DNA of 64,000 nucleotides from a virus. Positions within the stretch are counted from its first letter, which is position 1. Each line of letters opens with the position of its first letter. The translations under genes were made by a program, and so were the position numbers. Below the pieces are notes generated by a model. That model saw only the letters and a program-made list of their open reading frames with translations. It was not told the DNA's origin and did no database searches. Of the stretch, positions 442 through 26,802 are shown piece by piece. The stretch is taken from the IMG/VR virus record IMGVR_UViG_3300050821_017216, positions 32,001 through 96,000 of that record; one strand, 5' to 3'.

Positions 442-1380
442 TTAGTCATGGCAGAAGCAGTCCCCCAAGTCGTCCTCTGTCCCACACGTTTTGGGGTCGT
501 CGACCCGCCTCGCGAGTACCCGGAGCTGGCGGTAGGCGGGGCGGTCCTGGCGGAACAGGGAGCCCGCGTCGCGCTCGACGTCCTGCCACCACTTGAGCCG
601 TCCGGGCTCCTCCTGCTCGATGCGCAGGAGCTTCGACGTCGCCTTGAGGATGCACCCGTCGCAGTTGCCGCGATAGGTCCCGAGCACATCGTCGATGGGC
701 AGTCCTAGGTCGAAGTCCTGCGTCTTCCAAAACGCGATGACGCGAGCCTCGTCGACCTTGGCCTCCGCGAGAGGCATCACGTGCTCCCACCGTTCGGGCG
801 GGGAGCGCTTCAACTTGGCCACGCGCGAAGGTTCGTCGGCGCGGATGCCCATGACCATGTCCCACTTCTCGTAGCGACGCTCAAGCATCCACCGCTTCAT
901 CACGCGGACCTTCATCTCCGTTGTACACGTGCGAAAGGCTGGATTCGGCAGGCCGCTCATGGCGACGAAGTTCTCGTACGGCTCGCCCTCGCGCGATGCG
1001 GTCTCGAAGGTCACCTCTCGGAAACCGCGCTCGCGCGAATCGTCGAGTCCTGCGTTCGCCCACTGACGTGGTCGCGACATCCAAGCCGCCTTCGGGCGCT
1101 TCGACCTGAAGCGTTCAGCGATGGCGCGAACCTCGTCGCTCTTGTACTTCGGTAGCTCTTGGCGCTCGTACTCCAGCCAATGCACGTCGACACCCCAGTA
1201 GCGAGCGATCTGGTCAACGAACGTGAGCGTCTCTCGGTACTCCTTGCCGGTGTTGCAAAAGAGCACGTGGACGTCCGGCTGTAGCCCCTCGTCAAGGATG
1301 CGACGCAGCATGTAGGCGCTCGTGCGCCCTCCGGAGAGGGAGATGACGGCGGGACCTTCGACGAGGAACGGGGACTTCAT
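442..1380 (-). CDS. Phosphoadenosine phosphosulfate (PAPS) reductase family protein (DndC-like, phage type)
   Basis: PP-loop ISLSGGRTSAYM, FCNTGKE, RTCT.EMK, GIRADEP.R, and GNCDGC.LK plus C-terminal C.C cysteine cluster. Confidence 0.85.
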   Translation of the reverse strand: MKSPFLVEGPAVISLSGGRTSAYMLRRILDEGLQPDVHVLFCNTGKEYRETLTFVDQIARYWGVDVHWLEYERQELPKYKSDEVRAIAERFRSKRPKAAWMSRPRQWANAGLDDSRERGFREVTFETASREGEPYENFVAMSGLPNPAFRTCTTEMKVRVMKRWMLERRYEKWDMVMGIRADEPSRVAKLKRSPPERWEHVMPLAEAKVDEARVIAFWKTQDFDLGLPIDDVLGTYRGNCDGCILKATSKLLRIEQEEPGRLKWWQDVERDAGSLFRQDRPAYRQLRVLARRVDDPKTCGTEDDLGDCFCHD

Positions 1381-13559: not shown

Positions 13560-15898
13560 GGCGAGGTCGTCGAACGAGCCTCGCGGATGCTCACTCGCGA
13601 GCTGCGAGTCGCGGCGAACGGTCGTGTAAGTCCTGGTTCATCGAGTCGAGGTTGAAGAACGACCTCGCTGGACTCGTATCGTTTACCGTCCGCTTGCCAG
13701 GTCGAGGTCGTCGATCGACCTCGTCGTACCGACAGCCATCGCTCTTCTTCCAGAAGGCGAACCGCTACTAGTCGAGGCCGCCGATCGGTCTCGCTGTCGT
13801 ATCGACTGCCCCAGAATTGCAGCTCCATCTCAGGTCGAGATCGACGATCGACCTCGCTGTCATTCCGACTCGTGCCGCAGCGGCAATCTACCTCTCTGGC
13901 GTGGAGTGTCGAGGTCGTCGATCAACCTCGCTGGCGTTACAACGGCGCAGGTGCTGCACGTCAAGGTCGTCGGTCGACCTCGCTGTCCCCGCGCCTACCT
14001 GCCGGCCCCGCTTGTGTCGAAGTCGTCGATCGACTCCGCTGTCGTCGCGACACACCGCCGACGTACGCGATACGTCGGAGTCCTCGATCGGCTCCGCTGT
14101 CGTCGCGACGGCACGGCGGGCGCTGTTGCGCGCCCTGGTGGGAGTCGGAGTCTTCGATCGACTCCGCTGCCGTCGCGACCGCGCGGTGGTCGTCGAGCGC
14201 AGCTTACGGTGGGACGTCGCGACATGGTTGCGGTGTCTACGCAACTGACTCCGGCGGAGACGTCGGAGTCTTCGATCGACTCCGCTGCCGTCGCGACCCT
14301 CTGGACGGTCTGCATACCCGTAAGGGGACCCGTCACGACCCAATCGCGGCGCCGCCTAGCGCGCCACTGGCTGCGGTCGGAGTCTTCGATCGACTCCGCT
14401 ACCGTCGCGACGCGCCACGTGGTGCCGGGCCACTGGCACGACATCCCGTCGGAGTCTTCGATCGACCCCGCTGTCGTCATAACCTCTAGCTTCTTCGAGT
14501 GCGCGTTCGTCAGCCGCGTGTCGGAGTCTTCGATCGACCCCGCTGCCGTCGCGACGGGCCGGCAAAATCCACGGCGTCGGAGTCTTCGATCGACTCCGCT
14601 GCCGTCGCGACCGATGCCCAATCGGCCTCGCTGGGGAAGCCGTAGTTCGCGTCGGAGTCTTCGATCGACCCCGCTGCCGTCGCGACTTCCGAACGCTAGG
14701 TTGATGCCAACGCCGACTACAGCGAGTCGGAGTCTTCGATCGACTCCGCTGTCGATGTCGACTGCGCTGAGCTGCATCGGAGTCTTCGATCGACTCCGCT
14801 ACCGTCGTGACAAGGCGCATCGCCATGGAACCCCGAGTCGAGGTCGTCGATCGACCTCGCAGTCGTTCCGACTTACGCGGCGATCCCGCGAAGGTTCCAA
14901 TCGTAGTCGTCGAGGTCGTCGATCGACCTCGCAGTCGTTCCGACCGCGGCCGCGCGCGCAGTATGAGCGGGGCTCGCCGTGTCGAGGTCGTCGATCGACC
15001 TCGCTGTCGTTCCGACTCGAGGTCACAGTCGAGGAGTTCGAGGGAAGAACTCGTCGAGGTCGTCGATCGACCTCGCTGTCGTTCCGACCCGCGTCTGGCA
15101 CCGCCAGCTCGGCGTTGCACTCCACCGGTCGAGGTCGTCGATCGACCTCGCTGTCGTTCCGACATGCGCATCGTCCGGTTGCCCTTGAGCAACGTGTACG
15201 TGTCGAGGTTGTCGATCGACCTCGCTGTCGTTCCGACAGTACGCCTGCGGCGGCGGAGGAGGCGGGGCGAACTGGTCGAGGTCGTCGATCGACCTCGCTG
15301 TCGTTCCGACCTGCGTCGGCAGCGCCAGCACGTCGACGTCGTCGTGGTCGAGGTCGTCGATCGACCTCGCTGTCGTTCCGACGTCGCGCCGAATGCGCTT
15401 CGCAACGGAGCCCTTGTATCGAGGTCGTCGATCGACCTCGCTGTCGTTCCGACCCTGGAAGAGTTTTCGCGCAAGTTTCGCAGGAAGGGTGTCGAGGTCG
15501 TCGATCGACCTCGCTGTCGTTCCGACGGTGCTCTTGAGCGGGCCCAGTTTCTGCTCGACCTGCTGTCGAGGTCGTCGATCGACCTCGCTGTCGTTCCGAC
15601 CTTGCGAAGTCGCCAACGCTTTTGCGCTCGCACACGGCGTCGAGGTCGTCGATCGACCTCGCTGTCGTTCCGACAGCGCGTGGACGCGAAGATGAGCGAG
15701 CGCGAGCGCCAGTCGAGGTCGTCGATCGACCTCGCTGTCGTTCCGACGATGTGAGCGAGTGAGGGGAGACGGGAACTGACGGTCCGGGGTCGAGGTCGTC
15801 GATCGACCTCGCTGTCGTTCCGACGTCGCCGCCGTGACAACGGGGGCCTCCGTCCCGCTCTTGTCGAGGTCGTCGATCGACCTCGCTGTCGTTCCGAC
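13560..15898 (-). CRISPR. CRISPR array of about 35 repeat units, two 36-bp repeat families; probably transcribed on the minus strand
   Basis: Family A (minus GTCGGAACGACAGCGAGGTCGATCGACGACCTCGAC) x15 at 14837-15898 with 35-41 bp spacers; family B (minus GTCGCGACGGCAGCGGAGTCGATCGAAGACTCCGAC) x10 at 14074-14811, two 8-nt remnants, A/B hybrid at 14016; about 7 degenerate A-type repeats at 13560-13995. Confidence 0.97.
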
Positions 15899-15939
15899 AG
15901 GTAACGTTATGTTGTCAATGATCTTGTAGGCTTACCGAC
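15899..15939 (-). promoter_or_regulatory. Short AT-rich CRISPR leader
   Basis: 41 bp between the cas stop and the first (consensus) repeat; repeats degrade away from this end. Confidence 0.6.
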
Positions 15940-18012
15940 CTATTTTCGAGCGCTCTCGATCCTGGCCTTCTTCGCCGCGCCCATCCGTTTCGCGCGCGCC
16001 CACTTCTCGCTCTTTTTCTTGTTTGCTTCCGCATCTTTCTCTGGATCGCGAGCGCCTGCCAGGATCTCGGCGTCGCCGGGCCGCTCGCACCACCGCTGGA
16101 GCAGTAGCGGGGCCGCACCCTCCCGGTCTTGGTCCCACTCGTGACCACACGTGCAGCGCAGGCGCACCCGAAGGGCTGGCTCCCGGTCGGCCACGAGCCC
16201 ACACGCCGGGCACGTGCTGGTCGTGCGCGCGGCGTCTACGGCCACGATCTGGGTGCCGCGACGCGGAGCAGTCGACAGCAGGCAGTCGCGCAGTTCGCTC
16301 ACGGCGGCGAGCTGGCGGTTGCTGCGCGCGACCTCGTTCTCGGCGTCGTCCGCCCCGGTCGCTTTCCGGGTGGCGATTACCCGCAGGTCGAACTGCTCGA
16401 TCACGATCGTGCTGTACGCGCGCGTGAGCTCTGCGGCGAAGCACCGGTACTTGTCGCGCCGGCGACGCAGCCCGCGCGTGCGACACGCTTCCTCGGTGGC
16501 CCATCGCGCCCAGTCGCCCGTCGCCCACGCCCGGACGGCCTGGAGTGCGGCGTCCTCGGCGGCGTCTCGTTCCGGCCGCTCACTCTCCCAGCGACGGAGC
16601 AGGCGGACCATCTTGGCCGGTCGGCGCCACGCGTGCATCGCGCGCGCGGCGTCCCGCATCCACTCCGGCGCGACCGGAGAGACGCCGATCCACTGCTTGA
16701 CCTGCACCTTGCAGATGTCGAACGCGCGGTCGCGCTCGCTGCGCACGTCCGCGTGCATGCGGAGCGCGTGGACGTCGGCGACGGTCAGCCGGAGCTCGCC
16801 GCTTTTCCCGTTCGAGTCGTGCCAAGCTGCGACGCGGATCGCCCCGTCCATCAACCGCCAGCCCACGTCGACGGCGACGGTCGGGCGGTCCGGGACCGGA
16901 ACGGTCGCGGTGTCGGGCGTGTTGACCGTCAGGCAGAGGCTCCACTCGCTATGCGGCCCGCGCATGCGCCGGTGGACGGCAGCCCAGGTGATGAACGCAC
17001 CGGCCGGCAGCGGCCGGTGGTAGTCGAGCCGGAATGTCGCCCAGATCGGCCGGCGATGCTCGTCGGTGTCCACGCACAACCGGAGCTCGCCGTGCCGCGC
17101 CGCACGGTCACGCACCCAGCGCGCCGGCGTGCCGTCGGGTCGCGTCGCCGGTGCAGGCTGGTCCGGCTCGCCTTTACGACCGGGCAGGGTCCCCGGTGGC
17201 CGGCGGCCGCGACCGCTCCCCACGATGCTGTCTTCTCGACGCGGGGAGCGAGCGGTGAGCGTCGCGCTCGCGAGCCACTCTTCGGGCCACGGGGGGGCAC
17301 CGATCCGCAGCCTGGAGTCCTTCTGCGCGAGCGCCCCCTCGACCGTCAGCGGTCGGGTCGACTGGATCTGCACGCCCACGGTCCCCGAGCCGTCCCACGG
17401 GGGCGGCAAGTCCGGGTCGTGCGGCGTGACGCCGTCCCTCTCGTAGAGCGGCGCCTCGCAGCTCGCGCGGTGCGCGCGGTCTACCAGAAGGTACGTCCCC
17501 CACCACACGCCCGAGTGGTGGCGGGCGTTCTTGACGATCTCGTTGGCCATCGCGTCGATGGTGTCGATCGCGTCGCGCAGCGCGCGCGCCTCCGCCGAGG
17601 CGTGCGGGCACGGGTTCTGCTCGCTCTTGAGCTTGCGACACTCCTTGCACTGCGACGCGTAGCGCGCCCGCACCGCGTAGAGTTGCTCGCGCGCCTGCTT
17701 TCCCGCGGCGCGCGCGGCGGCGATCTGCAGGCGCGCGGACGCCGTCTCGCTGCGCGACCGGGTGACCTTGCGCCCGACCCGGATCTCGGCGGCGAGCCAC
17801 TCGCACGCCGCCGCGATCCCGGCGACCTTGGCCTCGGCCGCCTCCATCTCCGCGCTGCAGGTCGACCGCGCCAGCCGCTCGGCCCACCGTCGACCGCGCT
17901 CGATGAGCGTTAGGTTTTTGCGGTACGCGTGCGCGCGCCACATCTGATCGTGGACGACGTCCGCGCCCTCGCGGGGCGCGGTGATTCCGTTGCGAAACAC
18001 AAGTGTCGTCAT
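15940..18012 (-). CDS. cas12m: Type V CRISPR effector, Cas12m-like (V-M/V-U1; TnpB-derived)
   Basis: RuvC-I VAVDVGWR (D382), RuvC-II VIEQFD (E539), Zn finger CPACG/CTCG, RuvC-III WDQD (D629); WDGSGTVGVQIQ and HRPLP...I motifs match my recollection of Cas12m; abuts the array. Confidence 0.85.
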   Translation of the reverse strand: MTTLVFRNGITAPREGADVVHDQMWRAHAYRKNLTLIERGRRWAERLARSTCSAEMEAAEAKVAGIAAACEWLAAEIRVGRKVTRSRSETASARLQIAAARAAGKQAREQLYAVRARYASQCKECRKLKSEQNPCPHASAEARALRDAIDTIDAMANEIVKNARHHSGVWWGTYLLVDRAHRASCEAPLYERDGVTPHDPDLPPPWDGSGTVGVQIQSTRPLTVEGALAQKDSRLRIGAPPWPEEWLASATLTARSPRREDSIVGSGRGRRPPGTLPGRKGEPDQPAPATRPDGTPARWVRDRAARHGELRLCVDTDEHRRPIWATFRLDYHRPLPAGAFITWAAVHRRMRGPHSEWSLCLTVNTPDTATVPVPDRPTVAVDVGWRLMDGAIRVAAWHDSNGKSGELRLTVADVHALRMHADVRSERDRAFDICKVQVKQWIGVSPVAPEWMRDAARAMHAWRRPAKMVRLLRRWESERPERDAAEDAALQAVRAWATGDWARWATEEACRTRGLRRRRDKYRCFAAELTRAYSTIVIEQFDLRVIATRKATGADDAENEVARSNRQLAAVSELRDCLLSTAPRRGTQIVAVDAARTTSTCPACGLVADREPALRVRLRCTCGHEWDQDREGAAPLLLQRWCERPGDAEILAGARDPEKDAEANKKKSEKWARAKRMGAAKKARIESARK

Positions 18013-18027
18013 GGCTCTATCTTCCTT

Positions 18028-18240
18028 TCAGAGTTTTTGTGGGTCGTGTGGCCAGCCCGCATCGGCTGCACGTTGGTGGCTGCGACGAACGGCGTCCGTG
18101 TTGTCTGGGTTTGACTCCCACGCGTCCGCGCACCCCATCGAGCAGAAGTCGCGACCGTGCGCTCCGATCCTCGCTGTACCGACCTCTCTCATGTCGATCG
18201 GTAGATGGCATTCGTGGCAGACGGTCAGGTGAGCGGTCAT
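18028..18240 (-). CDS. Small Zn-binding (TRASH-like) protein
   Basis: CHEC...FCSMGC. Confidence 0.55.
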   Translation of the reverse strand: MTAHLTVCHECHLPIDMREVGTARIGAHGRDFCSMGCADAWESNPDNTDAVRRSHQRAADAGWPHDPQKL

Positions 18241-18884
18241 CGGCCGGTACCTCGTACCGACTCATGGGTCGGTGACAGGATCGCGGCCACGTCGGGATCG
18301 ATCCCCAGATCTTCGAGACCGAACAGGTGCCGGATCCCGACGCCGTCGACGCTGCTGGTTCGGCTGGCCGGCGGTCGGCGGTCGATCACCGTCACGATCC
18401 CACGCACGTCGAAGCCGTCGGAGCGCAGCGCCTGGACCGCGAGTGCGGAGGACTGGCCGGTCGACACGACGTCCTCGAGCAGCACCACCCACTCGCCGAA
18501 CCGGCACCACGCGTGCTCGACGAGGTTCTTCGTGCCGTGGTCCTTGGGGACCTTCCTGACGTAGATCACGTTGTAGTTGCCGCCGCCGGCGTGTGCGGCC
18601 ACGATGCTCGCGAGGTGGCAGCCGCCGAGCGCCACGCCGGCCACGGCTTCCGCGTGCCCGAATTGCTGCACCTCGCGATGGATGAGGGCGGCGAGCGGCC
18701 GGTGCATGTCGCGGTGGAAGTAGGTGCGCTTGGCGTCGACGTAGAGCCGCGACTTGCCGCCCGAGGCCAGGTCGAACTCGCGCCCGGGCTGAGCGACCTT
18801 GACCGAGTAGGCCTTGATGTGCGCGAGGACTGCCTGCCTGTCGATGGTGGCGTCGGTGTCGGTCATCTCTCCGATGTCGGTCAT
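18237..18884 (-). CDS. pyrE: Orotate phosphoribosyltransferase
   Basis: F.LASG..S..YVD, RK..K.HG loop, PRPP-binding VVLLEDVVSTGQS, V.VIDR; start chosen at MTDIGE with AAAGGA RBS. Confidence 0.9.
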   Translation of the reverse strand: MTDIGEMTDTDATIDRQAVLAHIKAYSVKVAQPGREFDLASGGKSRLYVDAKRTYFHRDMHRPLAALIHREVQQFGHAEAVAGVALGGCHLASIVAAHAGGGNYNVIYVRKVPKDHGTKNLVEHAWCRFGEWVVLLEDVVSTGQSSALAVQALRSDGFDVRGIVTVIDRRPPASRTSSVDGVGIRHLFGLEDLGIDPDVAAILSPTHESVRGTGR

Positions 18885-19216
18885 TTCTCTGATCCTTTCC
18901 TTTGGCGTGTCGGGTCGGTGGGTGACGGTGACTCCACGCTGGGACCCTCCTCCAGGAGGATCTCCATCGGTCGGGTCTCCTCCTCCGGGTCGGCGCGCGC
19001 GTACTCCGTCGGCGGATCCCGGCACTCCGCGCGCAGGATGCGCACGCGGTCGGAGAGCGCGCAGAGCGATCGCGCGTCCTCTCGCGCGCGGCGCGCGCGA
19101 CGCTCGCGCAGCGAGAAGCGGATCTCACTGACGACCAGCAGGACGACGACCGTGCCGAAGGCGCCCGCGATGATGCCGGCCAAGAGACCACGGTGGAACA
19201 TGTCGGCGGGGATCAT
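18881..19216 (-). CDS. Hypothetical membrane protein
   Basis: N-terminal transmembrane helix; coupled. Confidence 0.55.
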   Translation of the reverse strand: MIPADMFHRGLLAGIIAGAFGTVVVLLVVSEIRFSLRERRARRAREDARSLCALSDRVRILRAECRDPPTEYARADPEEETRPMEILLEEGPSVESPSPTDPTRQRKGSEK

Positions 19217-20176: not shown

Positions 20177-20427
20177 CGCGTGCCCCGCAGACTCGCCTGG
20201 ACCCTCGGGTCTGACGCCACGAGCCGGGTGAGGGTGGGTGGGGCGTAGCGGAGGCGGCGCGGCAGCTCGACCGACAGCGTGGACCCGCAGCGGCAGTTGC
20301 GGAGCTCGAGGGTCGTCGGCGCCGGGTGATCGGCGTCGACGCCGTCGTCGTCGTAGTAGCCGACGAGCGGCAGCGCGCGCCAGCCGGCGAGTTCGTGGAT
20401 CGCACCGCAGCACGTACAGGTCTTCAC
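20173..20427 (-). CDS. Hypothetical Zn-binding protein
   Basis: CTCCG...W..L..VG...LELRNCRCGSTL. Confidence 0.6.
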   Translation of the reverse strand: MKTCTCCGAIHELAGWRALPLVGYYDDDGVDADHPAPTTLELRNCRCGSTLSVELPRRLRYAPPTLTRLVASDPRVQASLRGTR

Positions 20428-20981
20428 GACTCCTCCCCGCGCGATCGGCGCCACTCTGCCTCCGCGAGGATCGCGCGGAGCTCCTTGACGGCGTACGCGC
20501 CCAGGTGCCTCCTCACGACAGCCTCCGCCCTCGCCATGTCTAAGTCCTCGCTCAGAACGAGGTACCGGACGTCCCCGTCGTCCTTCGGACGACCGGCGAT
20601 CATCTTCATCGCGACGAGGAACTCCGGCGTGACGATCGGCGGCGTGATGCCGTCGACCACCACGGCCGCCGCGAGCGCCCCCGCGTACAGATCCTTCCAC
20701 TCGTCGTCGCGCACGATGACGTCGAGCGGCACGTCGCCCTCGCGGGTCCGCACTCCGCCGAAGACGAGCGGCTCGCCGGAGTAGCCAAGCCGGTCAGTGG
20801 CGACGACGTCGAGGTCGCCCGTCAGTCGCGGCGAACCCCACACCTGCATCGCCAGTCCGCCGGCAACGGCGATCTCGCTGTCCGTGGCGCGACGCTCGCG
20901 CGCCCGCGCCGACACCTTCTCGGCCGCAGCGACCAGCTCGTCGTAGGACGGGAGACGTTTCCCTCTGCGCGGTTTCGTCAC
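20424..20981 (-). CDS. Nucleotidyltransferase family protein (DUF6036-like)
   Basis: AVAGGLA...WG.PR.TGDLDVV; LVAMKMIAGRPKD..D. Confidence 0.8.
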   Translation of the reverse strand: MTKPRRGKRLPSYDELVAAAEKVSARARERRATDSEIAVAGGLAMQVWGSPRLTGDLDVVATDRLGYSGEPLVFGGVRTREGDVPLDVIVRDDEWKDLYAGALAAAVVVDGITPPIVTPEFLVAMKMIAGRPKDDGDVRYLVLSEDLDMARAEAVVRRHLGAYAVKELRAILAEAEWRRSRGEES

Positions 20982-24333: not shown

Positions 24334-26802
24334 ATGCGCACCTGGAGCACCTACCAACTCGCTGTCTTCAAGAACGTCGCTGAAGGCACCGGTCACACCG
24401 TCGTCAACGCGGTCGCCGGCAGTGGGAAGAGCACAACCCTTGAAGAGGCCGTCAACCACATTCCGAAGGGTCTACGGACCCTGTCGGTGGCTTTCAACAA
24501 GGACATCGCCACGGCTATGGCCAAGCGCCTCGCCGGCAAGCCGGTCGAGGTCTCGACGCTGCACTCCTACGGTCTCAAGTGCATCACGGCTTCGCTCGGG
24601 CGGCTCACGATCGACGAGTACCGCGTGCACGGTTTCGTCGAGGACCTGTACAGCGCCGAGATCGCTCGCCTAGAGAAGGCGATCACCGAATCGAAGAGCG
24701 AGGCAGAGGCGTTCGAGTTTCAGGAACAGTTGGAGGCCATCGACGACCGCTGCCGCATGCTCATCAAGACCGTGTCGCTATCAAAGAACACGCTCGCGCT
24801 GACGCCGGTCGCGATCGACGAGGTCATGTACCGGTTCGGCATCGAGCTACCGACCACGGAAGAGGACGAGGAGGGCGCGTTCGGGGACGAGGCGGGCGAT
24901 GACGCCGCTGAGGCTGACCGCCAGAAGTTCGTCCAGGAGGTACTGGGACTGCTCCGCCGCTGCTACAGCACCGAGGACGGCAAGATTGACTTCGACGACA
25001 TGGTCTGGTTGCCGGTCGTCAGGAAGCTCCGCCAGCGCAAGTTCGACCGCGTCTTCGTGGATGAATGCCTGCCGGGGCCTACTCCGGTGCTTCTCGCGGA
25101 CGGGTCGTCGCGGACGATTCAGGATCTGGTCGAGAGTCGATACTCGGGCGACGTGCTCGCCTACGACACGGCGACCGGCAAACAGCGTCCCTGCCGCGTA
25201 ACGGGTTGGCAGACGATCCTGAACCAGAAACCGCTCGTGAAGATCAAGGCTCGCTGGAGCCAGCGGAAGGGAACGAACCGGCCGACGAACTTCATCATCT
25301 GCACGGAGGACCACAAGGTGTGGGCGAACGGAGCGTGGGTGCCGGCCGGAGATGTGAAGCCTGGGATGGTTCTCCAGGTAGAGACTTCTGCGGAGAAGTC
25401 CCAGGTCGGCAAGATCACGAAACGTGGACGCGCCACGCTAGCCGAAGAGATCCGGAGGAAGAACAAGGCCGGGATGATGGGCGGTGTGGCACCTACCGTG
25501 TTCAATGGTGTGCGAGGCGGCAACGGCAAGGGCCCAACGGTGCCAGAGCAGGCGCTCATGGACGCATTGGGGGAGGGTTGGGTCTGGCAGTACGCGATCC
25601 CGACGAAGAAATCGCGTGGGTATGGCTATCCGACCGCGTACAAGGTCGACATCGCGAAGCCGGGATGCAAGATCGCGATCGAAGTAGATGGGCACTCGCA
25701 CGGCCTGCGAAGGGCTCATGACGAGAAGAAGGACAGACTCCTGGAGTCGCTCGGGTGGACGGTCATACGGGTACCGAACCGGCGAGCCGTTCAGAACGCG
25801 AAGGAGGAGGCAGAACGCATCCTCGCAATGACCAACTGCCCGATCGATGCTGTCGTGGAGTCAGTGGAGCCGGTGACCATCCCGAGCTTCCACGTCTACG
25901 ATCTGACGGTCGAGGACTTGCACTGCTTCTACGCGAACGGGATTCTCGTTCACAACTGCCAAGATCTAAACGCAGCGCAGATTGAACTGACTCTGCGATC
26001 GGTCAAGTCTGACGGCCGTATCCTTGCGTGCGGTGACCCCCGGCAGGCGATCTACCAGTTCCGTGGCGCTGACGAGCGCGCGTTCGAGAACGTCAAGGAA
26101 GGTCTCGGCGCGACCGAGCTACCGCTGTCGATCTGCTACCGCTGCTCGAAGGCGGTTATCCGTAAGGCCCAGGAGCTCGTCCCAAGCATACAGGCGTCAC
26201 CGGACGCCCCCGATGGTACCGTTCTCCCAGCATCGCGCGAGCAGATGGAGAGGGAGGCGCAGCCGGGCGACTTCATCCTGAGCCGCACGAACGCCCCGCT
26301 GATCGGGCTCTGCATGTTCTTCCTAAAGAACGGCCGACGAGCCAACATCCAGGGGCGCGACGTGGGCAAGACCCTCGCCTCGTTCGTCAAGAAGAGCAAG
26401 GCAGCGGACATCCCCGCGTTCCGTGCCCACGTCGAGGAGTGGGCGAAGAAGGAGATCGCGAGGCTCGCCGCCAAGAAGCGCGACACGCAGGCGGTCGAGG
26501 ATCGTGCGGCGTGCCTCATCGCGCTCAGCGACGGCGCCGTCCGCGTCGCGGACGTCCTCGCCAGGATCGAGGAGCTGTTCTCCGACAAGAGTGACGGCGC
26601 CTGCATCATGCTCTCGACCACCCACAAGGCGAAGGGTCTGGAGCGCGATCGGGTCTGGCTGCTCATCGACACCTACCGGCCGAGTATCTCGATGGAAGAG
26701 GCCAACTGCCTATACGTCGCTCAGACACGCGCGAAGCACACGCTCGTCCTGGTCGGCGGCTTCGCGAAGAAGTCCAAGAGCGACGGCGCGGAGGGCGCGT
26801 GA
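24334..26802 (+). CDS. UvrD/Rep-family (SF1) helicase, intein-containing
   Basis: Walker A AVAGSGKST; DFDDM; VFVDE|CQD; CGDPRQAIYQFRGA; L...YRC; DFILSRTN; STTHKAKGLE; YVAQTRAK. Confidence 0.9.
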   Translation: MRTWSTYQLAVFKNVAEGTGHTVVNAVAGSGKSTTLEEAVNHIPKGLRTLSVAFNKDIATAMAKRLAGKPVEVSTLHSYGLKCITASLGRLTIDEYRVHGFVEDLYSAEIARLEKAITESKSEAEAFEFQEQLEAIDDRCRMLIKTVSLSKNTLALTPVAIDEVMYRFGIELPTTEEDEEGAFGDEAGDDAAEADRQKFVQEVLGLLRRCYSTEDGKIDFDDMVWLPVVRKLRQRKFDRVFVDECLPGPTPVLLADGSSRTIQDLVESRYSGDVLAYDTATGKQRPCRVTGWQTILNQKPLVKIKARWSQRKGTNRPTNFIICTEDHKVWANGAWVPAGDVKPGMVLQVETSAEKSQVGKITKRGRATLAEEIRRKNKAGMMGGVAPTVFNGVRGGNGKGPTVPEQALMDALGEGWVWQYAIPTKKSRGYGYPTAYKVDIAKPGCKIAIEVDGHSHGLRRAHDEKKDRLLESLGWTVIRVPNRRAVQNAKEEAERILAMTNCPIDAVVESVEPVTIPSFHVYDLTVEDLHCFYANGILVHNCQDLNAAQIELTLRSVKSDGRILACGDPRQAIYQFRGADERAFENVKEGLGATELPLSICYRCSKAVIRKAQELVPSIQASPDAPDGTVLPASREQMEREAQPGDFILSRTNAPLIGLCMFFLKNGRRANIQGRDVGKTLASFVKKSKAADIPAFRAHVEEWAKKEIARLAAKKRDTQAVEDRAACLIALSDGAVRVADVLARIEELFSDKSDGACIMLSTTHKAKGLERDRVWLLIDTYRPSISMEEANCLYVAQTRAKHTLVLVGGFAKKSKSDGAEGA
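25066..25956 (+). mobile_element. Intein (297 aa) with DUF559/Vsr-like endonuclease, inserted in helicase Walker B
   Basis: Starts CLPGPTPVLLADG, ends ANGILVHN, +1 Cys; internal KVDIA...IAIEVDGHSH...DEKKD..LESLGWTVIR. Confidence 0.9.

Follow-up and report, generated by a model that had tools for sequence, protein, structure and literature searches.

Can a virus carry a guide-directed DNA-binding system that has no genes of its own for acquiring guides, and what would such a system act upon? This question is raised by a stretch of 64,000 nucleotides (hereafter the window) that corresponds to bases 32001-96000 of the 119,899-bp single contig of IMG/VR record IMGVR_UViG_3300050821_017216 (labeled G000), in which a gene for a Cas12m-like effector lies beside a long CRISPR array. 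An earlier note on this DNA had described a phage-borne, minimal type V-M-like system. Our analysis indicates that the locus is probably a virus-borne minimal type V-M Cas12m system, carried on an approximately 120-kb virus of Polyangiales, that would silence its targets by binding. The features of the locus are listed in Table 1.

The G+C pattern across the codon positions of the effector reading frame was that of a real gene. Searches of the effector against Pfam and NCBIfam recognized only the C-terminal TNB or TnpB-type region. A phmmer search of the PDB with the effector returned the Cas12m entry 23vw ("CRISPR-associated DNA-binding protein Cas12m"; E = 6e-40), UnCas12m4a (6e-16), and GoCas12m (8pm4; 4e-16). 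A profile built from 26 relatives matched the Cas12m chains of the PDB at 2.8e-99, 1.7e-54, 4.9e-50, and 3.4e-41, and the match at 1.7e-54 was to Cas12m2 and extended from end to end (residues 2-618 against residues 3-586). By comparison, the best TnpB-like protein reached 1e-7, Cas12f 2e-4, and CasPhi 3e-3, and the TnpB chains were at 0.04 or worse. In this hidden Markov model comparison with the Cas12 subtypes and TnpB, which the earlier note had called for, Cas12m was thus far ahead (about 3e-99 to 3e-41 against 1e-7), and the clustering with TnpB that would have spoken against a Cas12m-like effector was not seen.

The predicted fold agreed with the sequence profile. An AlphaFold2 model of the effector, built on the alignment of its relatives, had a mean predicted local distance difference test score (pLDDT) of 84.7. 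When this model was searched with Foldseek, Cas12m2 (8hhl) ranked first (E = 2.5e-27; template modeling score [TM] 0.71) and GoCas12m (8pm4) had a TM of 0.70; the top four matches were all to Cas12m2 and GoCas12m, with TM values of 0.64-0.71 and E-values from 1e-27 to 1e-22. TnpB was found at 2e-9, and TnpB and Cas12f trailed at approximately 1e-9 or weaker. By these matches, the model has the fold of Cas12m, which is bilobed, with a WED domain, a coiled-coil recognition (REC) lobe, and a RuvC domain with an inserted TNB domain; the CCCC zinc finger in the TNB domain of the effector (C601, C604, C620, and C622) was conserved.

The catalytic and other conserved residues were compared across relatives. 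The RuvC triad of the effector is D382/E539/D629, which aligned by hidden Markov model with H317/D485/D579 of Cas12m2 and with the D-E-D residues of 23vw; in 36 relatives, the triad was DED in 31, NED in 2, and of another composition in 3. The Cas12m clades carry the triads HEK/HQK, HDD, DED/NED, and DED/DND/NED (PMC10442227), and the alignment of the triad with the Cas12m2 and 23vw positions therefore places the effector in the D-E-D-type clades of that study. The effector belongs to a clade of proteins of approximately 690 aa, in which a REC-lobe motif, C122/C125/C135/H137 (Cys-x2-Cys followed by Cys-x-His, residues 118-139; window 16300-17650, minus strand), is invariant. Other Cas12m relatives lack this motif, as do the solved Cas12m structures, with gaps at its place in 23vw and Cas12m2, and it may form a second zinc site. 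The clade also has a disordered Pro/Arg-rich insert at approximately residues 250-297 and a basic C-terminal helix. The REC helices of the effector contain the invariant arginines R81, R85, R87, R101, and R115; in Cas12m2, an Arg-rich REC pocket for the displaced strand is formed by R111/R112/R126.

The array begins exactly as far from the effector gene as the earlier note had stated. The gap between the effector stop and the first repeat contains a TTGACA hexamer, and a scan of the gap identified neither a sigma-70-type promoter nor a terminator. From its position, the gap is a putative leader or a plain read-through junction; co-transcription with cas12m is the simplest reading, because no promoter or terminator was identified there. 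The array has 31 clear 36-nt repeats between positions 13701 and 15898 and reaches to approximately 13560, with degenerate repeats or remnants at approximately 13562, at approximately 13645, and within two over-long "spacers" of 78 and 82 nt. Counting these copies and remnants, the figure of approximately 35 units given previously is a fair one.

Three zones were distinguished in the array. The zone A repeat, read in the sense of the effector, begins GTCGGAACGACAGC and closes with a hairpin followed by GAC; its RNA was predicted to fold at -17.2 kcal/mol into stems I and II. Zone B carries a second type of repeat that differs from type A by compensatory changes in the stem, and its irregular spacer lengths indicate decay. 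The ACCCC sub-variant of zone B is the repeat of a sibling virus described below, and its folding energy was -14.2 kcal/mol in the effector sense against -7.0 kcal/mol in the opposite sense, a G-U pair being tolerated only in the effector sense. Zone A' is the old end of the array.

Table 1. Features of the Cas12m locus (positions in the window)
Feature	Position	Strand	Description
cas12m-like effector gene	15940..18012	-	690 aa (label P0001); assigned by profile, fold, and conserved residues
Gap from effector stop to first repeat	15899..15939	-	exactly 41 bp; less G+C-rich than its surroundings; TTGACA hexamer inside
Array zone A	14837..15898	-	15 near-perfect 36-nt repeats nearest the effector; unique spacers of 35-41 nt
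Array zone B	14016..14811	-	second repeat type, present in 11 copies and sharing ~78% identity with type A; spacers irregular in length (14-82 nt)
Spacer 11	14484..14519	-	the one spacer of the window whose target was identified, in an IS1/IS1595-like DDE transposase gene of Polyangiales
Array zone A'	13562..13995	-	5-7 degenerate type-A repeats, effector-distal

The repeats of related arrays were also informative about the strand on which the array is read. The repeats of the relatives have a length of 36 nt, and almost every one terminates in GAC. Across 25 different repeats, the 6-bp hairpin immediately before the terminal GAC was paired in 95% of cells; all 6 pairs covaried, and the observed covariation score was reached by 0 of 500 shuffles. 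Ten hairpin cells were G-U pairs, which on the opposite strand would give A-C mismatches. The effector-sense fold, a small 5' stem and a 3' hairpin, fits the "stem I / stem II" arrangement of Cas12m repeats (PMC11013384). Hairpin covariation, folding energies, the decay of repeats at the far end, and the geometry of the protospacer-adjacent motif (PAM) described below all indicate that array and effector gene share one reading direction. The association recurs among relatives: in approximately 37 of the 52 related loci, the effector gene is followed directly downstream, at a distance of tens to hundreds of bases, by a CRISPR-like array on its own strand; several of the loci without a downstream array stop at a contig edge.

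The results revealed a minimal composition. The absence of cas1, cas2, and cas4, noted previously for the window, extends to the entire 119,899-bp record, in which no Pfam match to Cas1, Cas2, or Cas4 was found at E ≤ 1, and control genomes did give matches. No TnpA (Y1 transposase) and no second TNB-domain protein over the Pfam cut-off were found in the record. An anti-repeat of at least 13 nt was not found in the flanks within several kb of the array, and an Rfam search gave no match; as the earlier note had observed, no candidate for a trans-activating CRISPR RNA (tracrRNA) is present. V-M loci without adaptation modules are an established state on mobile elements (PMC11656645).

We searched the 30 spacers of the window array for targets, and in the genome searches two candidates were scored per genome. 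Spacer 11 gave a full-length match in 4 of 401 Polyangiales genomes, with 32-34 of 36 nt identical (89-95% identity) and a best E-value per genome of 3.8e-8. The genomes searched included two that are unpublished (G388 and G397), on which nothing claimed here depends. In all four genomes, the match fell at one and the same position of an IS1/IS1595-like DDE transposase gene (IS1 family, E = 5.5e-12), of which each genome has one to three diverged copies, and the 5' flank on the guide-identical strand was TTC in three genomes and TTT in one. Two further full-length matches in chromosomal genes of Polyangiales were given by a related locus (L070), whose effector is 61% identical and whose array has 36 repeats. 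The two L070 spacers concerned (its spacers 26 and 34; L070:13747-13782 and L070:14327-14361) match hypD (Pfam E = 1.6e-122) at 33 of 36 nt with a TTC flank, and the 5' end of an Hpt/receiver-domain protein gene at 33 of 35 nt with a TTG flank. The three independent protospacers, a small number, all have TT at -3 and -2 in DNA of approximately 68% G+C, and these flanks fit the 5'-TTN/YTN PAMs of characterized Cas12m (PMC10442227; bioRxiv 10.64898/2026.03.26.714355). The spacer search proposed in the earlier note thus yielded an IS1-like transposase with TTC or TTT flanks, from 1 of the 30 window spacers only. Taken together, the sequence profile, the predicted fold, the repeat architecture, the absent adaptation genes, and the PAM-like flanks support membership of the effector in the Cas12m / type V-M family.

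Searches for targets on viruses and plasmids were negative. The spacers matched their own 120-kb record over 17 nt at best, which is chance level, and in a blastn search with the whole array, all matches to 50,697 phage records and 72,556 plasmids had E ≥ 0.02. For five spacers, the 20-mer next to the PAM was looked for in IMG/VR, and four of these seeds had no match; that of spacer 26 of the window matched 21 nt of a phage gene that looked VRR-NUC-like on inspection by eye, with no TTN flank and no similarity past the seed, and this is treated as a chance or unsettled match. A degenerate pattern for the spacer 11 target found nothing in IMG/VR. Matches in Polyangiales genomes around spacers 19, 22, and 23 were rejected as protospacers, as they straddled repeat and spacer or were G+C-rich and of low complexity. 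The seven newest spacers matched nothing in the Polyangiales genomes, a weak negative at two scored candidates per genome, and no spacer matched a virus in the searches run. The earlier note had envisaged competition between phages or repression of host genes. The targets found were host-chromosome genes and an insertion sequence (IS) element and none was a phage; the three targets therefore point more to the silencing of host genes than to conflict between phages, for which no evidence was found among the targets identified.

On the basis of these findings and by analogy with characterized systems, the following working is proposed. The cas12m gene and the array would be transcribed together from the effector side, and Cas12m would itself cut the precursor CRISPR RNA (crRNA) into a repeat-derived handle of approximately 33 nt and a guide of approximately 17-20 nt (PMC10442227, PMC11013384). 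The complex would find DNA flanked by 5'-TTN and bind it tightly, acting as a roadblock to transcription or replication and not through cleavage. While infecting its host or being carried by it, the virus would in this way repress host genes, IS elements, and possibly rival elements, and new spacers would be supplied by host Cas1-Cas2 in trans or by recombination between the arrays of co-infecting relatives. Because binding spares the cell, a virus with spacers against host genes and IS elements would thereby repress functions of its host.

Several findings weigh against this reading. The D-E-D triad is intact and conserved, which is compatible with a working nuclease. A target was identified for just 1 of the 30 window spacers, and the genomes matched (89-95% identity) are not those of the true host; since two candidates were scored per genome, the low yield is no evidence that the other spacers lack targets, some of which could have escaped the search. 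Approximately 780 Polyangiales genomes yielded no host array with a similar repeat, save one that belongs to a related V-M locus, which argues against a simple in-trans use of the host adaptation machinery. Capsid, portal, and tail families were not found among approximately 40 open reading frames (ORFs) of the record, including the largest, in PHROGs or Pfam scans, and the only packaging-type match is a HerA/FtsK-like ATPase of 651 aa. Even with these points counted, silencing by binding from a virus-borne locus remains the reading that we consider likely.

A further-reaching and tentative proposal, which we hold at less than even weight, is that the viruses of this clade use a binding-only Cas12m as a programmable repressor of the host chromosome, with guides renewed without adaptation genes of their own, through a host Cas1-Cas2 that tolerates a foreign repeat or through the swapping of array blocks among relatives that infect together. 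The targets would then be IS transposases, hydrogenase maturation genes, and Hpt/receiver-domain signaling genes, and the A-B-A' mosaic would be the trace of block swapping.

The relatives of the effector allowed the history of the array to be considered. We found 46 relatives in the protein database (many on contigs of 70-124 kb), 39 loci in IMG/VR, and 13 loci in Joint Genome Institute (JGI) metagenomes; the last two sets make up the 52 related loci. Relatives at 53% identity were located on long contigs of the European Nucleotide Archive (ENA), and the related loci are spread over several lineages of viruses with sizes of 40-245 kb. One metagenomic relative (L075:5312-8263; 55% identical) spans approximately 984 aa and therefore has an insertion or fusion of approximately 300 aa. 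A search of the reference genome collection contigs with the single effector sequence found nothing; the effector-family profile found one contig, from a metagenome-assembled genome (MAG) of Polyangiaceae. An identical 38-nt spacer, together with the same repeat type, was present in the array of a soil-metagenome contig (L068) and at a contig end of this MAG (G001:C770:25359-25396). The Cas12m gene of the MAG is on a separate contig of 5.8 kb, and the assembly therefore probably broke within the array.

A close relative is a sibling virus represented by two IMG/VR contigs (L005-L008, including L007), with an effector that is 93% identical at the protein level and synteny with window positions 4400-28900 at 83-91% nucleotide identity. 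Its array, at the same location, has 22 repeats of the zone B (ACCCC) type and internal duplications. No spacer was common to the window array and the sibling array. With flanks that are 83-91% identical and yet no common spacer, the content of the array turns over much faster than the surrounding genome. Similarly, approximately 360 spacers from 36 related arrays showed almost no sharing, save between near-identical contigs, and of approximately 330 spacers from these arrays compared with G000 and all fetched loci, none targets this virus. Zone B of the window looks like an array block of the sibling type set between type-A blocks. Both ongoing acquisition and recombination between arrays would fit this picture, the two being indistinguishable here. 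Of the apparent growth of the array described in the earlier note, what is shown directly is the complete turnover of spacers relative to a close sibling.

The alternative that survives best under these data is that the array is a decaying, inherited relic without acquisition, in which fixed guides serve a hard-wired regulator and the differences from the sibling arose only by recombination and deletion. The lack of adaptation genes, the lack of a host array with a compatible repeat in approximately 780 genomes, the A-B-A' mosaic with its irregular spacers and repeat remnants, the internal duplications of the sibling array, and the identical spacers of L068 and the MAG contig all fit such a relic. 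However, the 15 effector-proximal repeats are essentially perfect and separated by unique spacers of regular length, the sibling has no spacer in common despite its 83-91% identical flanks, and the spacers of the 36 related arrays are almost unshared outside near-identical contigs. We consider a relic array doubtful, and it retains appreciable weight.

A second alternative leaves the locus as it is and takes the effector for an active nuclease that, guided by RNA, would cut DNA and so destroy its targets, whether rival phages, plasmids, or the DNA of the host. Such an enzyme would be in line with the canonical RuvC triad (D-E-D), which 31 of 36 relatives share; it has been considered that Cas12m of the D-E-D clades 3 and 4 might hydrolyze DNA (PMC10442227), and a preprint on MvCas12m suggests nuclease activity (bioRxiv 10.64898/2026.09.14.751636). 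Nevertheless, Bigelyte et al. tested four Cas12m proteins of the D-E-D type, all of which bound double-stranded DNA without cleaving it (PMC11013384), and the intact triad is for this reason no evidence of nuclease activity; moreover, Cas12m2 did not regain cleavage when its HDD triad was changed to DED (PMC10442227). In addition, the targets found for the spacers are chromosomal genes of the host, and cutting these would kill it early. An active nuclease is thus unlikely, and less probable than a relic array.

The nature of the carrier bears on a third alternative. The G000 record is linear, classed as a virus by IMG/VR, and 100% complete according to CheckV. Its replication and recombination genes encode a Sak4-like annealing protein, an exonuclease, DnaB-like and superfamily 2 (SF2) helicases, and a polymerase exonuclease subunit, and further genes encode an intein-bearing UvrD helicase, a thymidylate synthase, a PAPS-reductase-like protein, ParB, and a DNA methyltransferase. 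Pfam models of the HK97 capsid (Phage_capsid), VirB4, and the tyrosine integrase had no match in the record. The 651-aa ATPase (G000:C1:14073-16028, minus strand, outside the window) matched a terminase-large-subunit PHROG at 2.6e-18 over residues 96-298 only and had weak HerA/DUF87/TrwB matches in Pfam; from its sequence it appears closer to a FtsK/HerA-type packaging ATPase than to a classical TerL. Since no capsid, portal, or tail gene was recognized, the virion type, and strictly even the viral nature of the element, depends on the IMG/VR classification. The description of the locus as phage-borne draws on the virus class, the completeness, and the phage-type replication and recombination genes, and not on recognizable structural genes.

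A protein of 439 aa (G000:C1:112600-113919; L004:7601-8920, plus strand; outside the window) is of particular relevance to this matter. It had no Pfam or PHROG match but more than 390 homologues at E ≤ 1e-3; the 120 matches listed each had an identity of 67% or more and lay on contigs as long as 252 kb. The protein recurs (83% identity) in a record of 124.6 kb that has direct terminal repeats and encodes a Cas12m only 32% identical to that of G000. An AlphaFold2 model of it, on a shallow alignment, had a pLDDT of 36. It may be the capsid protein of an uncharacterized virus lineage of 100-250 kb, and G000 belongs to a widespread, uncharacterized virus lineage. A 199-aa ORF (L004:9016-9615) adjoins its gene. 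The protospacer matches in Polyangiales genomes support Polyangiales (Myxococcota) as the host group of the carrier.

It could be argued that the carrier is a plasmid or a phage-plasmid-like episome without virions that was misclassified as viral, and the ParB-like partition gene, the lack of a detected integrase, HK97 capsid, portal, or tail gene, the weak HerA/TrwB-type matches of the large ATPase, and the enrichment of V-M systems on plasmids (PMC11656645) are in line with this. Against it stand the IMG/VR virus class and CheckV completeness of 100%, the direct terminal repeats of the related 124.6-kb record, the terminase-large-subunit PHROG match of the ATPase, the lack of VirB4, and the very conserved 439-aa protein on hundreds of contigs of up to 252 kb, which is of the kind expected of a capsid protein. 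An episome of this kind is improbable, more so than a nuclease.

Finally, the view that the effector is an IS-associated TnpB with an omega-RNA, to which the adjoining repeats are irrelevant, draws on the recognition of only the C-terminal TNB / TnpB-type region by Pfam and NCBIfam and is close to refuted, because in the profile and fold searches the E-values of Cas12m were better than those of TnpB by 40 to 90 orders of magnitude, the record has no TnpA and a CRISPR array with a covarying hairpin stands where the omega-RNA would be, the array lies directly downstream in approximately 37 of 52 relatives, and the protospacer flanks show the 5'-TTN geometry of Cas12 enzymes.

The genes around the locus were also inspected. 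The gene upstream of the effector (18237-19025, minus strand), named pyrE in the earlier note, had only a weak phosphoribosyltransferase-domain match under the Pfam cut-off (E = 4e-5), and a search of the syntenic position of the sibling did not find it; the name is not established. A 132-aa ORF is kept in the sibling, and no upstream gene is conserved. A 70-aa Cys-rich ORF (18028-18240, minus strand; CxxC followed by FCSxGC; no Pfam match) ends 16 bp ahead of the effector start. Elsewhere in the window, the UvrD/SF1 helicase gene at 24334-26802 (plus strand) is split by an intein splicing domain, and the insert also has a DUF559/MTES_1575 endonuclease-like domain. An ORF at 20424-20981 (minus strand) has weak AbiEii/DUF6036-like nucleotidyltransferase matches, and that at 442-1380 (minus strand) is PAPS-reductase-like (PHROG, 7.8e-51); both may have a defense or auxiliary role in the virus. 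The 50 bases with which the record opens (C1:1-50), outside the window, recur exactly at C1:30061-30110, approximately 30 kb inward.

Comparison with known systems places the locus among type V-M systems and also sets it apart. The effector is homologous over its full length to MmCas12m2 (8HHL/8HIO), GoCas12m (8PM4), and 23VW, with the same fold and a RuvC domain with an inserted zinc-finger TNB domain. However, it is approximately 90 aa longer than these proteins, with its Pro/Arg-rich insert, basic C-terminal helix, and REC Cys-Cys-Cys-His motif, and it has a CCCC zinc finger in place of HCCC and a D-E-D triad in place of the HDD of MmCas12m2 and GoCas12m. As in the type V-M systems of bacteria and plasmids, there is a single crRNA with a 36-nt repeat and two stems, no tracrRNA, no adaptation module, 5'-TTN-like flanks, and carriage on a mobile element, whereas here the carrier is a 120-kb virus and the array is unusually long and mosaic. 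Cas12j/CasPhi, Cas12-lambda, and other systems of large phages likewise have one small RuvC effector, a crRNA only, and an array without Cas1 or Cas2, but Cas12j/CasPhi and Cas12-lambda are separate Cas12 families with active nucleases, and CasPhi scored 3e-3 in the profile search against the order of 1e-99 for Cas12m. The TnpB and IscB nucleases and the TldR repressors have a common RuvC-TNB core, and the TldRs also act by binding; in contrast to these, the present locus has no transposon context, TnpA, or omega-RNA and draws its guides from a CRISPR array.

The nearest published counterpart is MvCas12m of myxophage MV-1, which was called the first phage Cas12m (bioRxiv 10.64898/2026.09.14.751636, September 2026). 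Both are D-E-D Cas12m proteins beside an array, on viruses assigned to Polyangiales, without cas1, cas2, cas4, or tracrRNA. MvCas12m has 610 aa and 8 spacers for which no protospacers were found, and its virus is predicted to be temperate with an integrase; the effector described here, compared by description, has 690 aa and the REC zinc motif, approximately 30 spacers, two repeat types, one target, and no integrase found.

The locus is real, but the kind of system is already known, as V-M systems without adaptation genes are established on mobile elements and a myxophage example was described in the 2026 preprint; the known understanding of how V-M systems work is left unchanged. What the locus provides is a well-documented second example of a phage-encoded Cas12m, from a different clade than the single preprint report. 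The 39 IMG/VR and 13 metagenome loci, mostly with an array directly downstream, indicate that Cas12m loci are not rare in large environmental viruses. To our knowledge, the host-type genes, the IS element, and the 5'-TTN flanks are the first clues to the targets and PAM of a virus-borne V-M system. The clade of approximately 690 aa with its extra zinc motif, the long mosaic array, and the rapid turnover of spacers are further useful additions, and this clade, in which the extra zinc motif is combined with an intact D-E-D triad, is a natural test case for DNA cutting by D-E-D Cas12m.

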